A program made the position numbers and the translations under genes. A model generated the notes under the pieces. The model ran no database searches, had not been told where the DNA came from, and was given only the letters and a program-made list of their open reading frames with translations. From Escherichia phage EC.P1, in the sequence record PQ657772.1: a stretch of DNA of 64,000 nucleotides; one strand, given 5' to 3'. Below are positions 16,897 through 33,490 of this stretch, one piece after another (positions within the stretch are counted from its first letter, which is position 1; each line of letters starts with the position of its first letter).

Positions 16897-18045
16897 ATGT
16901 TACCTTTTGTTAGAATGTTTGATTATGGGAATGAAGCACCTACCAACTCTGGGCGTTTTAAAATATATTCCAGTGATTCTATGTATCTTCATGATACTTA
17001 TACTGACAAGTTGTATGCATCTTCTGCGACGAATTGGGGTACTGGTACAGGTGTAGCATCGAGTAAATTTATTCTTTGTGCGGAGAATGTTAAACGAGTT
17101 CTATTGGAAGATAACAGTAGTGATTGTCAATTGTATGAAGAGAAAGGTACTGGAAAAGTTTTTATCACTGGTAACACGAAGGCATTCACTGGTGTAACTG
17201 ATAGAAAAACTTTGTGGACGGACTGTACTACGTGGATAACATCAAGTGGTATTAATGTTTCTGATATAAAATACATGAGTAGTTTTTATGATATGAAGGT
17301 GAATTTGATAACAAACGATGGTACATTGTATTGTTGTGGAGCTAACAATATATCGAACATATCATCATTTGGTGATGGCACAAACATTAATTCTTTTAAC
17401 ACATTCAAAAGAGTAGATACTATAACTTCGGTTAAAAAGGCAGTTGGTAACATTTATTTGCGAGAAGATAATACTTTATGGGGTTGTGGTTTTAACTATT
17501 ACTACCAGTTGGGCACGGGTAATCAAACTTCTATTACTGGGGTGACGATGATTTCTTCGGATGTTATAGATTTTAATGTAAGTTATCAGAGTACATTTTT
17601 TATCAAATCGGATAATAATTTGTACGCTTGTGGTAAACAGTTCGGTGCACAATATGGGAACGAATTTGGTACAGGTGGTACTTCCTCTTCTACTGATATA
17701 CAATATAAAACTCCCACATTATTGAGTGCAGGTGTTTATAGTTTATATACTTGTGTTGGTAACATGGCATCACATATAGTTAAAGGTGATGAAGTACTTT
17801 ATGCATCTGGAAGCAACTCGTCTGGTCAATTAGGTGTTGGTAATAATAATAATCAGTACTCCTATACTCCTTCATATACTTCGTTTAATACCTCTTGTAA
17901 TTTGGTACGCACCCCATCTGGTTCACTTATACTTACTGATACTGGAAAATTATATTATTGTGGCCTTGCAATAGTAGTAATGGGTGGTATTTCTGGACAG
18001 AACGTTCTTAATTATACAGAAGTCGATATGTCATTTTTGCAGTAA
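16897..18045 (+). CDS. RCC1-like repeat protein, paralog 1 (N-terminal MLPFVRMFDYGN)
   Basis: 382 aa; repeated YYQLGTG / GQLGVGN RCC1-like glycine motifs. Confidence 0.75.
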   Translation: MLPFVRMFDYGNEAPTNSGRFKIYSSDSMYLHDTYTDKLYASSATNWGTGTGVASSKFILCAENVKRVLLEDNSSDCQLYEEKGTGKVFITGNTKAFTGVTDRKTLWTDCTTWITSSGINVSDIKYMSSFYDMKVNLITNDGTLYCCGANNISNISSFGDGTNINSFNTFKRVDTITSVKKAVGNIYLREDNTLWGCGFNYYYQLGTGNQTSITGVTMISSDVIDFNVSYQSTFFIKSDNNLYACGKQFGAQYGNEFGTGGTSSSTDIQYKTPTLLSAGVYSLYTCVGNMASHIVKGDEVLYASGSNSSGQLGVGNNNNQYSYTPSYTSFNTSCNLVRTPSGSLILTDTGKLYYCGLAIVVMGGISGQNVLNYTEVDMSFLQ

Positions 18046-18052
18046 ATTAATA

Positions 18053-18078
18053 TGCCAGTACTTGATACTGGCTTTTTT
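18053..18078 (+). terminator. rho-independent terminator (GCCAGTACT..ATACTGGC + T-run)
   Basis: hairpin + T-run. Confidence 0.65.
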
Positions 18079-18112
18079 GATTAAATATAGTATAATGAAT
18101 AAAGGAGGAAAT

Positions 18113-19222
18113 ATGTTACCTTTTGTAAGAATGGTTAAGTACGGGAATATTGCACCAGTACCGAAAAAAATAAAGAAAGTTATAGCAGGATATGATAATT
18201 TATATGTACTATATGGTGATGGTTCGCTATATGGTTGTGGAATCAATAACTATCAACAGTTAAATATTAATGGAACTGCTACACAAAATAATTGGGTACT
18301 AATTACCAATGGTGTTAGTAATGCATGGGCTGGTGGATACAATATTTTATATTTGAAAGAAGATAAATTTATAATGCACGGAACTAATGTCTCATTAGGT
18401 TTAGGAAATACTACAATTCCATTAGGTGGAGTAGATGTAACTTCTTCATTCCCAGATATCTCTAATATTAAAATGATATCCATTGGTTTTGATTCAATGC
18501 ACTATGTTAGTGCTGATGGTACAACTGTATATGGAAGAGGTATGAACACAAATGGTTCTGTTGGTTCAGGTAGTACTTACTCACAGAGTACTTTCACTTC
18601 AGTACTGAATAATGGAACTAATCAGGTTATTGATATATTTGGTAACGTTAATAATACAGTGCTTCTAACATCGAATGGTGAGCTTCGAGCATGTGGGACA
18701 AGTGCTTATGGTTCTATAGGAAATGAAACTGGTAAGTGGACATCGTTTGGTTTAAAATTATCTGGCACTAAAATAATGGGTGGTAATGGGTATAGTACGC
18801 TTGCATATACAAATTCGGGAATGTACCACTCAGGGTGGCAGTTAAATGGGGAACTAGGAAATGGTTTAGATACTAACGTACAGGTATATCCATTTCAATT
18901 TAACTCTAAAACGATAGATAGCAAGATAGATAAAATTGCCAAATCATCATCTGGGTCATATGTTAACATGTACTCAACAACAGAAGGAAAGATATATACG
19001 ACAGGTTCGTTTGGTAAAAACGGGTCAACTACTGCATTGAATTTGTTCACCAATACATTAACACTTATAAATTACAATCCAGATACCGCCTCGTTGTATA
19101 CGTGCACAAACTTCAGTGTTGTGTATGATGGTAATGAAACTATTGCTGTAAGTGGTAGTCCTACATATGTACCAGGGGGCGTTGCCGCTAATAGATGGAC
19201 TACAATTCCATTACCCAAGTAA
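18113..19222 (+). CDS. RCC1-like repeat protein, paralog 2 (MLPFVRMVKYGN; start trimmed)
   Basis: ATG 7 nt after AAGGAGG; the track's upstream extension runs through the terminator/promoter. Confidence 0.75.
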   Translation: MLPFVRMVKYGNIAPVPKKIKKVIAGYDNLYVLYGDGSLYGCGINNYQQLNINGTATQNNWVLITNGVSNAWAGGYNILYLKEDKFIMHGTNVSLGLGNTTIPLGGVDVTSSFPDISNIKMISIGFDSMHYVSADGTTVYGRGMNTNGSVGSGSTYSQSTFTSVLNNGTNQVIDIFGNVNNTVLLTSNGELRACGTSAYGSIGNETGKWTSFGLKLSGTKIMGGNGYSTLAYTNSGMYHSGWQLNGELGNGLDTNVQVYPFQFNSKTIDSKIDKIAKSSSGSYVNMYSTTEGKIYTTGSFGKNGSTTALNLFTNTLTLINYNPDTASLYTCTNFSVVYDGNETIAVSGSPTYVPGGVAANRWTTIPLPK

Positions 19223-19228
19223 TACTAT

Positions 19229-31605: not shown

Positions 31606-31612
31606 TATAATT

Positions 31613-31639
31613 CCAGTACTATGTACTGGCTTTTCTTTT
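31613..31639. terminator. hairpin terminator shared by convergent genes (CCAGTACTATGTACTGG)
   Basis: lies between plus gene end 31605 and minus gene end 31638. Confidence 0.55.
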
Positions 31640-32288
31640 ACATATTATATAATGTGAATGCAGTCACTTTACCAGTTGTTGTTAGTTCATTATAAAGATA
31701 CTCCAAGATTCTCGCACACTCTAAGTATATCTCGATATCATCATGAATAAGTGAGTACTGAAATAGCTGTTCTTCAGATAATTTGTATTGACTTCCTTTT
31801 AATGAATTGAGAATATCTTTCACATCATCAAGTACTGGGTAAAGTACGAAATCTTCATCATATTTTGAAGCAATAAATTCAAATCCACCACCATCAGTAC
31901 TAGATATACCAATCAGTACTTTATCAATCAAGTTAATGTTTATATAACGGTTGTGATTTGGGTGAATTGAAATCTCAAACATAAGAGTACTGTTACAATC
32001 AACATCAATATACAAATATACATCATTGAATTTATAAGTTAAGCAACCGTACTCAAGAAAATCAGAGCAAATAATTGATGAGTTTTTTCTCGTCTCTGCG
32101 TAATGCATCTTGATATTCTTTTCACGCATAAGTAATTCGAACTTTGCACTAAACTTGCCACCAGCAAGATAGTTAGTATTAGGACGTTTGTAACTTGCAA
32201 CTGGTCGGTGGGATGATGTAAAGTATTTTTTTGTGAATCGTTTATGTTTAGTGAAATATTCTTGATAGAACTTACTTCTTTTATTCAT
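31638..32288 (-). CDS. hypothetical 216-aa protein on the opposite strand inside the RCC1 array
   Basis: N-terminus MNKRSKFYQEYFTKH resembles the small-paralog family signature. Confidence 0.55.
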   Translation of the reverse strand: MNKRSKFYQEYFTKHKRFTKKYFTSSHRPVASYKRPNTNYLAGGKFSAKFELLMREKNIKMHYAETRKNSSIICSDFLEYGCLTYKFNDVYLYIDVDCNSTLMFEISIHPNHNRYININLIDKVLIGISSTDGGGFEFIASKYDEDFVLYPVLDDVKDILNSLKGSQYKLSEEQLFQYSLIHDDIEIYLECARILEYLYNELTTTGKVTAFTLYNM

Positions 32289-32365
32289 GAGTACCTCAAT
32301 TAAATCGCTGTAAAATTGTACATTATAAAATGATTAAATAAAGTATAACACAAGGAGATTTTATC

Positions 32366-33490
32366 ATGTTACCTTTCGTATTGTTATTTGATTATGGGAA
32401 CGAAAAACAAGAAAGTTCTTATGATGTTAGTGTATATGGAAACAATAACTACATTTTAAATAAACAAACTGGAAACCTTTTTGCATCCGGTGCTGCGGCA
32501 TTCATGGGTGATAACACAGTTAAGTATTATATTACCCAAATAGAATCAAATGTTCATAGCTGTGAGATAGGTTTCCTATCATCATGGATAATTAAGAAGG
32601 ACAAAACTGTTTTCATTTTAGGAAACAAAAGCAGTATTGGATTAACTGATTCGACAACATCATGGTTCGAAATTACAAACTTATTTTCTGCTGTTCCTGA
32701 AATATGGGACAACCTATTTGAATGTAAAGTTCAATTGGGATATAACTGCATACGTGTTATGACACCACTAGGATCAATATATGCGATTGGTACAAACACT
32801 TATGGTGCATTGGGTACTGGTACTACATCCTCATCCACTTCGTTCGTTAAAAGTGGTGCTGTGGATGCTGTACGCATGGAATCAACAGAACGTTCAGTGT
32901 TCTATCAAAACAGTTCTGGACAATGGTTTGGATGTGGTGATAACACATATGGTATACTAGGTCTAGGAACTACCGCTAGTCGTGTAAACTCATACACCGC
33001 ACCAGTATGGACTAATGCAGAAGCTGTTAGCTTCTCTAACCGTGGAATCATATACAGCCTCAATGGTACTCTATACTCATGTGGTGACAAAGTTAATGGT
33101 CAGCTAGGGGATGGATATACACAAAGCATAGACGCAGCCAGGAGCACACCATACACCATAGGAACCGCATTCCAAATTGGTAAGGCAATAACATCAGCTA
33201 CACAAGCATCAGCCAACGTATTCATTGGTAAAGATAATAAGTTCTATGGTACTGGTAGTATTGCTGCTGGTATAAATGGTAGTACTAGTGCTGCATTAAG
33301 TAAAGTTACTGCGTTATCAGCAGCACTACCACCTGACATTACATACAATGATATTATAACATTCAATACAGGGACCGTAACTTTTATTCAAGCAAAAGGA
33401 CAACTATATTATGTTGGTAGAAGAACTTACATAGATAATAGTTCAGACGTTACCACACAGTTCAGTGTAATTGGTGGCTTAGATAATTAA
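32366..33490 (+). CDS. RCC1-like repeat protein, paralog 13 (MLPFVLLFDYGN; divergent promoter region)
   Basis: GALGTG, GQLGDG motifs. Confidence 0.7.
   Translation: MLPFVLLFDYGNEKQESSYDVSVYGNNNYILNKQTGNLFASGAAAFMGDNTVKYYITQIESNVHSCEIGFLSSWIIKKDKTVFILGNKSSIGLTDSTTSWFEITNLFSAVPEIWDNLFECKVQLGYNCIRVMTPLGSIYAIGTNTYGALGTGTTSSSTSFVKSGAVDAVRMESTERSVFYQNSSGQWFGCGDNTYGILGLGTTASRVNSYTAPVWTNAEAVSFSNRGIIYSLNGTLYSCGDKVNGQLGDGYTQSIDAARSTPYTIGTAFQIGKAITSATQASANVFIGKDNKFYGTGSIAAGINGSTSAALSKVTALSAALPPDITYNDIITFNTGTVTFIQAKGQLYYVGRRTYIDNSSDVTTQFSVIGGLDN

Follow-up and report, generated by a model that had tools for sequence, protein, structure and literature searches.

What could lead a bacteriophage to keep thirteen tandem genes whose products are strongly diverged but begin with practically the same twelve residues? 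The locus that raises this question lies at 16897-33490 of a 64,000-nucleotide (nt) stretch of Escherichia phage EC.P1 (PQ657772.1), hereafter the window, and an earlier sequence-only reading had described it as a tandem array of RCC1-like paralogues with a homogenised 5' end and a hypervariable body. Judging from its sequence relationships, the phage is a PBECO4/121Q-type (Asteriusvirus-like) jumbo coliphage. The nearest records by megablast are Ecwhy_1, fEgEco12 and EC22.5-2, any single record covers at most 47% of the array, and the 13-gene combination is present in no deposited genome. The answer that we favour, with a probability of about 0.5, is that the array encodes late, virion-incorporated binding modules which are addressed by their shared N-terminal peptide, and that the genes are shuffled at cassettes similar to the promoter early stem-loop (PeSL) units of T4-type phages. 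The family fills about 5% of the 350-kb genome, and most jumbo phage genes are without an assigned function.

Parts of this picture are not new. The array genes are annotated in related genomes as 'regulator of chromosome condensation', 'putative DNA condensation protein', 'RCC1/DNA condensation protein', HERC1 or RPGR. The 'DNA condensation proteins' of the Rak2-like phages (phAPEC6 gp001-010/549-551, 121Q gp234-248, PBECO4 and GAP32 gp001) are the same family at the same locus, with orthologues that are 85-99% identical; 13 family genes are already listed for 121Q. Eleven RCC1-like proteins were counted in phAPEC6, with a speculated role in the inner body of the capsid (PMC7247149), and GAP32 gp001 was reported as a virion protein identified by mass spectrometry (MS), with multiple homologues in 121Q and PBECO4 (PMC5259590). 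An array of RCC1-like paralogues and its presence in virions are thus already published. The searched literature, including a search with the tag strings that returned no match, makes no mention of the shared N-terminal tag, its occurrence on non-RCC1 folds, tag swapping or the cassette structure. What appears to be unreported is the portable tag, the swapping of tags and cassettes between old paralogues, and the gene-by-gene differences in array content among close relatives.

The thirteen genes and their fold

A six-frame search of the window with the pattern M[LIV]PF..YGN returns exactly 13 matches, all of them on the plus strand of the array (Table 1). The tagged proteins are 369-449 residues long and have the common start MLPFxRxxxYGN, which comes in two subtypes, ..(M/L)FDYGN in nine copies and ..MVKYGN in four; in copy 13 the arginine at position 6 is replaced by leucine. 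Beyond the first 12 residues the proteins are only 13-25% identical. The number of genes, the two subtypes and the strong divergence of the cores are therefore as the sequence-only reading had put them. At the nucleotide level the copies share 0.73-1.0 identity over positions +1..+40, and at +40 the identity drops to a background of 0.3-0.4. The same architecture recurs in at least eight independently sequenced phage genomes, and we reject an assembly artefact as the source of the common N-terminus.

One member of the array, R7, is frameshifted by a single extra nucleotide (C at ~24196) after codon 43, and the downstream frame stays open. The identical lesion is found in Ecwhy_1, EC22.5-2, WPEC3 and PBECO4, and a search for signs of programmed frameshifting brought to light no convincing slippery site in R7. 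An old, shared pseudogene is more likely than a gene that needs a +1 shift. In 121Q it is a different copy that is frameshifted, which suggests birth-and-death turnover in the family.

The RCC1-type identity that had been proposed from glycine motifs is borne out by profile searches and by modelling. Twelve of the 13 genes match Pfam RCC1 (PF00415), RCC1_2 (PF13540) or the RCC1-like domain WD40_RLD (PF25390) with E-values from 1e-8 to 1e-28; the whole-domain scores stay under the gathering score of PF25390, and most copies exceed the cut-offs of the RCC1 or RCC1_2 repeats. R11 has no Pfam match and is aligned to the family profile by hhalign with a probability of 99%. An AlphaFold2 (AF2) model of R8, built from a 35-sequence alignment, is all-beta (pLDDT 81, pTM 0.83), and Foldseek matches it to UVR8, RPGR, HERC2 and RCC1 at TM-scores of 0.65-0.78 with E-values down to 1e-22. 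The array proteins are, on these profiles and this model, RCC1-type seven-bladed propellers. Residues 1-19 of the R8 model have low pLDDT and no secondary structure. The possibility that the tag supplies the closing ('velcro') strand of the propeller was rejected, considering that it is unstructured in the model, missing from RCC1 homologues outside the clade and present on other folds. Among solved structures there is no phage virion chain homologous to the RCC1 profile or to a LamG-like tagged protein. A 107-residue antisense open reading frame (ORF) inside R8 (25631-25954, minus strand), whose runs of V and T mirror the T-rich segment of R8, is almost certainly not a gene.

A tag separable from the propeller and frequent in virions

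The conservation of the tag is residue specific. In a set of 136 tagged starts, drawn from 16 loci, M1, P3 and F4 are fully conserved (100%), followed by N12 (99%), Y10 (97%), G11 (96%), L2 (95%) and R6 (90%), and positions 5 and 7-9 vary. Synonymous codons within the tag differ by genus (CCT/CCA/CCG, AGA/AGG, TAT/TAC, GGG/GGA/GGT), and GAP32 gp001, from another genus, starts with MLPFSRIIQYGN using other codons. Residue-specific conservation combined with genus-specific codons argues for selection on the peptide, beyond selection on the DNA alone. The taxonomic distribution is narrow: 38 of 120 database relatives carry the motif, all of them about 380 residues long and, where a long contig is recorded, on contigs of 350 kb, and a degenerate DNA pattern of the tag searched against IMG/VR finds six Rak2-like jumbo-phage contigs and nothing else. 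The RCC1 proteins of Clostridioides phages align with the family from residue 30 onward only.

Within the clade the tag is not confined to RCC1 propellers. Syntenic arrays of the phages Turkey3, Hallingskeid and CBB encode tagged Kelch-repeat propellers (Pfam E-values 1e-16 to 4e-32); other tagged proteins are ConA-like/Laminin_G_3 (LamG) proteins (E 2e-12) that match phrog_6011, 'virion structural protein'. There is also a tagged RCC1+Kelch fusion, as well as a tagged glycine-rich protein of 245 residues (fEgEco12 g586, 121Q gp243) which matches the RCC1 profile over residues 1-23 only. The tag is thus shown to be an element separate from the propeller and portable across folds. By inspection it has no hydrophobic core, and a function as signal peptide was discarded. 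In the Vequintavirinae, an RCC1+Ig 'tail protein' (SSE121 gp048, 4MG gp038) starts M(Y/F)PIP(C/S)LFL..GGG and a LamG-like virion protein (4MG gp182) starts MEEMLLVGGG; these N-termini may be another label in similar use.

Could the first 12 codons instead be kept as a DNA or RNA element, either a patch of homology for recombination or a translation-initiation region, with the encoded peptide being functionless? Within the array the codons are more uniform than the peptide requires, since at sites with the same amino acid they are identical in 83% of pairs compared to 47% expected from the genes' own codon usage, and the minority codons GGG, CCT and AGA are retained across the array tags. The conserved block moreover runs unbroken from the terminator to codon 12, and recombination breakpoints fall at or just past the tag. 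These observations are outweighed by others: amino acids are kept across genera while codons change, the fixed positions (1-4, 6 and 10-12) alternate with free ones (5 and 7-9), the tag is also kept by genes in which the upstream cassette is missing or unrelated (R6, the WPEC3 orthologue of R11 and the CBB genes), and virions are enriched in tagged proteins whose folds are unrelated. A peptide without function is improbable, and the shared 12-residue label probably acts as an address tag.

The enrichment comes from published proteomes. In phAPEC6, eight 'DNA condensation proteins' are among the 62 virion proteins identified by electrospray ionisation tandem MS (PMC7247149). Of the eight masses listed, seven correspond to tagged ORFs within the stretches of the record that were examined, the eighth (gp010) lying outside those stretches. 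With about 13 tagged genes, eight detected compares with 62 of 551 genes overall (hypergeometric P ~1e-5). The syntenic cluster of CBB consists of nine genes (CBB_548-554, 536 and 537), each of which opens with the tag; of these nine checked genes, seven have products in the published virion proteome (PMC5259590). Taking 10 genes as tagged and assuming that at most 83 proteins were detected, the enrichment has P ~1e-4. The virion table of JP4, obtained by liquid chromatography-tandem MS, holds at least two tagged proteins, JP4_581 and JP4_577 (PMC12648861), at the protein level, N-terminal peptides not being listed. Published MS has thus detected eight tagged virion proteins in phAPEC6, seven in CBB, one in GAP32 and at least two in JP4, and the strong over-representation of tagged proteins in purified virions is shown. 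Together with the tag on unrelated folds, these proteomes support the suggestion of the sequence-only reading that the N-terminal peptide addresses proteins to the virion, the link between tag and incorporation being a correlative one. Two features of the phAPEC6 data deserve mention in passing: the deposited record repeats two RCC1 genes at both ends, as a redundant assembly end or a terminal repeat, and the numbering of genes in the paper's table is shifted relative to that of the record.

It is hardly credible that the tagged proteins are non-structural, intracellular or host-takeover factors which merely contaminate virion preparations. The MS signals are weak and propellers are generic scaffolds for protein interaction, as such a view would have it, but four independent virion proteomes, covering four phages and two genera, contain the proteins, and their promoter is of the late and not the early type.

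The name under which the family is annotated implies yet another role, namely the condensation of DNA, whereby the proteins would order the 350-kb genome or make up the capsid's inner body. The authors of the phAPEC6 study suggested this role (PMC7247149); the proteins are indeed in virions and the phAPEC6 inner body contains proteins that are unassigned. The name, however, was taken solely from homology with eukaryotic RCC1, an exchange factor of Ran whose link to chromatin needs partners that are absent from bacteria; Ran itself is not known from bacteria. CBB, whose packaged genome is of similar size, has no RCC1 homologue and carries tagged Kelch and LamG proteins at the locus instead, the peptides counted are few for proteins with a bulk structural role, and the gene content differs among near-identical phages. 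Our analysis found no support for DNA condensation, which we regard as very improbable, and the annotation is misleading.

Upstream cassettes and the shuffling of genes

The homogeneous 5' end extends upstream of the coding sequence. A type-1 unit of ~70 nt is nearly identical before eight copies (2, 3 and 7-12) and comprises a GCCAGTAC-loop-GTACTGGC hairpin, a T-run and GATTAAATATAGTATAATGAATAAAGGAGG. Copies 4 and 5 have a second type of cassette with the same hairpin core and GTAAATAC, copy 1 retains the promoter and Shine-Dalgarno (SD) portion only, copy 6 the SD only, and copy 13 has its own version. The upstream sequence is less uniform than the ~60 nearly identical nucleotides of the sequence-only reading would suggest. 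Shuffled versions of the window never yielded the 26-nt cassette core (9 observed, 0 expected) or the cassette hairpin (8 observed, 0 expected), neither of which is present elsewhere in the window, and terminator-like sites number 27 compared to 6.5 expected.

The promoters point to late expression. TAAATA occurs 31-36 nt upstream of the ATG in 12 of the 13 array genes. In phAPEC6 the same motif precedes nine of 11 genes with an intergenic spacer, mostly those for baseplate, tail and other structural proteins, and it was not found before the phAPEC6 genes for the late sigma factor, Clp and thymidylate synthase (thyA). An ATAAATA late motif that resembles the T4 late promoter has been reported at structural genes of CBB and GAP32, and the clade encodes a gp55-like sigma factor. 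Sigma-70 -35/-10 sites are not in excess in the window (79 found, 88 expected) and the cassette contains no -35 element at a distance of 16-18 nt, leaving a sigma-70 early promoter unsupported. The array genes would accordingly be transcribed late, as far as their promoter sequences tell.

In their composite architecture of stem-loop terminator and promoter, the eight near-identical and two second-type units qualify as PeSL-like. PeSL cassettes of T4-type phages are near-identical terminator/promoter units between the variable genes of a hyperplastic region, where they serve as crossover points for the gene-wise insertion, deletion and replacement of genes (PMC2839356, PMC4122927), and modular shuffling mediated by PeSL is the closest described mechanism. 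Two differences are worth considering. The promoter in the array is of the late TAAATA type without a -35 element, unlike the sigma-70 early promoter of PeSL, and the conserved unit runs through the SD into the first 12 codons, so that recombination would re-tag the protein.

Comparison of related genomes gives this idea substance. Clustering the bodies of tagged genes from nine genomes yields 30 orthologue groups, here denoted by letters, with fs for a frameshifted copy. The order in the window is B A L E K C fs F D H M I J, in Ecwhy_1 B A E N C fs F D H G I J, in fEgEco12 B A L E N C F G D O A Q T I J, and in 121Q B P C P D O B G fs S A. Genes have been inserted, deleted and reordered one by one across the nine genomes, and each phage has its own set of 11-17 modules. 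This is the comparison of array content that had been proposed as a check. Orthologues are 85-99% identical between coliphages (average 91%), paralogues average ~28%, and R8 (copy 8) has a 60%-identical orthologue in an Erwinia phage. The high orthologue identity and the Erwinia orthologue of R8 imply that the paralogues are old and that their bodies are not hypervariable. In this respect the earlier description does not hold, and we reject both truly hypervariable bodies and targeted hypermutation; what varies is the presence of a gene, its order and the tag that it carries.

The subtype of the tag is independent of the orthologue group, and two cases illustrate how tags change hands. R1 and its 121Q counterpart gp248 have bodies that are 96.7% identical and homologous upstream sequences, and nucleotides +13..+52 have been replaced; each of their tags is 100% identical to that of a ~20%-identical paralogue in its own genome. 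R11 and its WPEC3 orthologue are near-identical from +51 (2 mismatches in the 80 nt shown), differ in tag subtype and have unrelated upstream DNA. The breakpoints between related phages thus fall at +13..+52 and at the upstream edge of the cassette. These swaps indicate that the cassette, including the tag, is exchanged between paralogues and marks the crossovers of gene shuffling. Homogenisation of the 5' end by recombination, as the sequence-only reading had surmised, finds support in the orthologue clustering and in the mapped breakpoints. The array is a clear case of concerted evolution driven by cassettes. It would provide a worked example of how regulatory-plus-coding cassettes drive gene-by-gene shuffling, and would carry the PeSL concept over from early ORFan genes to late genes for virion proteins.

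Placement of the modules, and the surroundings of the array

Taken together, the following mechanism can be envisaged. Each module consists of a flexible MLPFxRxxxYGN label ahead of, and outside, a ~40-kDa seven-bladed RCC1-like propeller. Nearly every gene would form its own transcription unit with a shared CCAGTAC..GTACTGG terminator hairpin, a late-type TAAATA promoter ~32 nt ahead of the ATG and a strong AAGGAGG. The label would act as a portable address peptide that docks the modules into the particle, where they would most likely be low-copy, surface-exposed decorations or adhesins that bind ligands and compete for a common docking site; internal cargo would be their less likely placement. 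The ~110-nt unit of terminator, promoter, SD and tag is swapped between paralogues within a genome, and between related phages it marks the crossovers for gain, loss, reordering and re-tagging of whole genes.

A position on the surface is preferred because of the lectin-like folds of the cargo, the precedent of RCC1 propellers in tail fibres and tail proteins, and the link of LamG/ConA domains to adhesion. In the phages PollyC and Littlefix, the distal part of the T7-gp17-type tail fibres is an RCC1-like propeller, the RCC1+Ig 'tail protein' of the Vequintavirinae SSE121 and 4MG is encoded in their tail-fibre module, and in jumbo phages LamG/ConA lectin domains have been linked to fibres and adhesion (PMC7824862). 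The same fold therefore serves as a module of the adsorption apparatus elsewhere. The proteins of PollyC, Littlefix, SSE121 and 4MG, however, have large anchor domains (the T7 gp17 N-terminus) or Ig domains and belong to the tail-fibre module, whereas the array proteins have a 12-residue tag and a separate locus. With receptor-binding proteins in general the array shares the combination of a conserved N-terminal part and diverse C-terminal binding folds; it differs from them in its distance from the structural genes and in the single globular propeller of the predicted structure.

Several points weigh against late, surface-exposed virion modules. The MS signals are weak, with 1-5 peptides in phAPEC6 and one in JP4, and abundant late proteins could co-purify with virions. 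The array is far from the tail and baseplate genes (in phAPEC6, gp001-010 as opposed to gp238-256). The proteins are predicted to be single globular propellers and not trimeric fibres, which is unusual for receptor-binding proteins, and an anchor of 12 residues is very short. A promoter motif is the sole basis for the late timing. Finally, the genome-specific tag variants could in part reflect co-evolution with a docking partner and not gene conversion.

The internal proteins of T4 offer a different precedent. They are diverse and share only a short N-terminal capsid targeting sequence (CTS), and in the hyperplastic internal protein locus of T-even phages the genes form a cluster whose content changes rapidly from one relative to the next (PMC3012670). 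By analogy, the tag could load cargo onto the scaffolding core of the head, to be packaged with the DNA and ejected, upon which the propellers would neutralise host proteins such as defence systems. The phages in question are distantly related to T4 and have a late sigma factor similar to gp55 as well as a late promoter of the T4 kind, the tagged proteins are detected in virions, the content of the array turns over between close relatives as an arms race predicts, and the proteins of the phAPEC6 inner body, mentioned above, are unassigned. The analogy does not extend to the sequence: the tag does not resemble the T4 CTS, residues 13-20 vary without a conserved Glu, and past the tag there is no conserved site for a prohead protease (hydrophobic-x-Glu). 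Nor does it extend to the cargo: T4 internal proteins are small and basic, but here the tag precedes beta-rich binding modules of 25-45 kDa, with RCC1, Kelch, LamG/ConA-like and glycine-rich folds that are typical of extracellular binding modules and are elsewhere found in phage tail fibres, and propellers of 40 kDa would have to unfold to traverse the tail. We consider a location inside the head unlikely and retain surface-exposed modules as the preferred placement.

It is possible, and we put this forward tentatively, that MLPFxRxxxYGN is a general and transferable signal for virion incorporation in Rak2-like jumbo phages, so that every protein bearing it would be loaded onto or into the particle. 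The phages would thereby equip their virions with a strain-specific repertoire of lectin-like modules (RCC1, Kelch, LamG) that is exchangeable by recombination and distinct from the tail fibres. If the tag does predict virion incorporation, it provides a simple rule for annotating accessory virion proteins across the phage clade, and tag fusions would be a handle for locating the docking site and for turning jumbo phages into vehicles that display or package arbitrary proteins. The content of the array, provided that the modules are adhesins, may explain differences in host range between near-identical therapeutic phages.

Table 1. Coordinates of the tagged genes, upstream cassettes and associated features in the window (SD, Shine-Dalgarno; group, orthologue group)
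Feature	Position	Strand	Remarks
Cassette before R1	16817..16896	+	TAAATA 16865-16870, TATAAT, AAGGAGG; without canonical hairpin
R1, tagged RCC1-like propeller gene	16897..18045	+	382 aa, tag MLPFVRMFDYGN, group B
Type-1 cassette before R2	18046..18112	+	terminator hairpin 18054-18072, T-run, TAAATA 18082, AAGGAGG
R2, tagged RCC1-like gene	18113..19222	+	369 aa, tag MLPFVRMVKYGN, group A
Type-1 cassette before R3	19223..19293	+	hairpin 19229-19248, TAAATA 19262, SD
R3, tagged RCC1-like gene	19294..20415	+	373 aa, group L
Type-2 cassette before R4	20416..20488	+	hairpin 20422-20445, GTAAATAC 20453, GGAG
R4, tagged RCC1-like gene	20489..21670	+	393 aa, group E, type-2 upstream cassette
Type-2 cassette before R5	21671..21745	+	hairpin 21675-21702, GTAAATAC 21709, GGAG
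R5, tagged RCC1-like gene	21746..22876	+	376 aa, group K, type-2 upstream cassette
R6, tagged RCC1-like gene	22887..23996	+	369 aa, group C; 10 nt after R5, SD only, no own promoter
Type-1 cassette before R7	23997..24066	+	hairpin 24003-24021, TAAATA 24035, SD
R7, tagged RCC1-like gene, frameshifted	24067..25246	+	59-aa tagged ORF, then ORF 24170-25246
Type-1 cassette before R8	25247..25316	+	hairpin 25251-25276, TAAATA 25286, SD
R8, tagged RCC1-like gene	25317..26471	+	384 aa, group F; modelled seven-bladed propeller, residues 1-19 unstructured
Type-1 cassette before R9	26472..26547	+	hairpin 26477-26504, TAAATA 26516, SD
R9, tagged RCC1-like gene	26548..27738	+	396 aa, group D
Type-1 cassette before R10	27739..27812	+	hairpin 27746-27764, TAAATA 27782, SD
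R10, tagged RCC1-like gene	27813..29000	+	395 aa, tag MLPFARMVKYGN, group H
Type-1 cassette before R11	28989..29051	+	hairpin 28989-29007 (overlaps R10 end), TAAATA 29021, SD
R11, tagged divergent RCC1-like gene	29052..30401	+	449 aa, group M; no Pfam match, hhalign 99%
Type-1 cassette before R12	30402..30471	+	hairpin 30408-30426, TAAATA 30440, SD
R12, tagged RCC1-like gene	30472..31605	+	377 aa, group I
Terminator hairpin after R12	31613..31629	.	CCAGTAC..GTACTGG, palindromic, also faces minus-strand gene
Conserved 216-aa gene within array	31638..32288	-	phrog_34359; 121Q gp233 equivalent; function unassigned
R13 promoter region	32289..32365	+	TAAATA 32335, GGAG 32354
R13, tagged RCC1-like gene	32366..33490	+	374 aa, tag MLPFVLLFDYGN, group J; minus-strand gene between R12 and R13
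Terminator hairpin after R13, array end	33495..33521	.	CCAGTAC..GTACTGG core

The single minus-strand gene within the array encodes a protein of 216 residues with only seven homologues, all of them in the same phage group. It has no Pfam match, and its AF2 model is unusable (pLDDT 46). A 219-residue gene at 14134-14793 (minus strand), likewise without a Pfam match, is weakly similar to it (BLASTP E 8e-4), and the two may be distant paralogues, to judge from this alignment.

The 219-residue gene is part of the surroundings of the array, lying among about 24 tandem, tiny paralogues (59-77 residues; 11996-16793, minus strand) that are located directly upstream of the tagged genes and transcribed divergently from them. 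The tiny proteins typically start MN..KE(Y/F)Y and end ..L(L/I)..Y(R/K); their array is also annotated in 121Q (gp249-265), fEgEco12 and WPEC3, and its GC skew is positive despite the minus-strand orientation of the genes. Directly downstream of the tagged genes are seven tandem paralogous membrane proteins of 104-123 residues (phrog_27618; 33527-35966, minus strand), and a syntenic array of membrane proteins also flanks the tagged-gene locus in CBB and Hallingskeid, the three arrays thus travelling together. Between minus-strand genes and the tiny-gene array lies an ORF-poor stretch of nearly 2 kb (~10050-11990) without a tRNA or Rfam family, scans of the whole window for either being empty as well; the equivalent gap in CBB holds the boundary of the terminal repeat.

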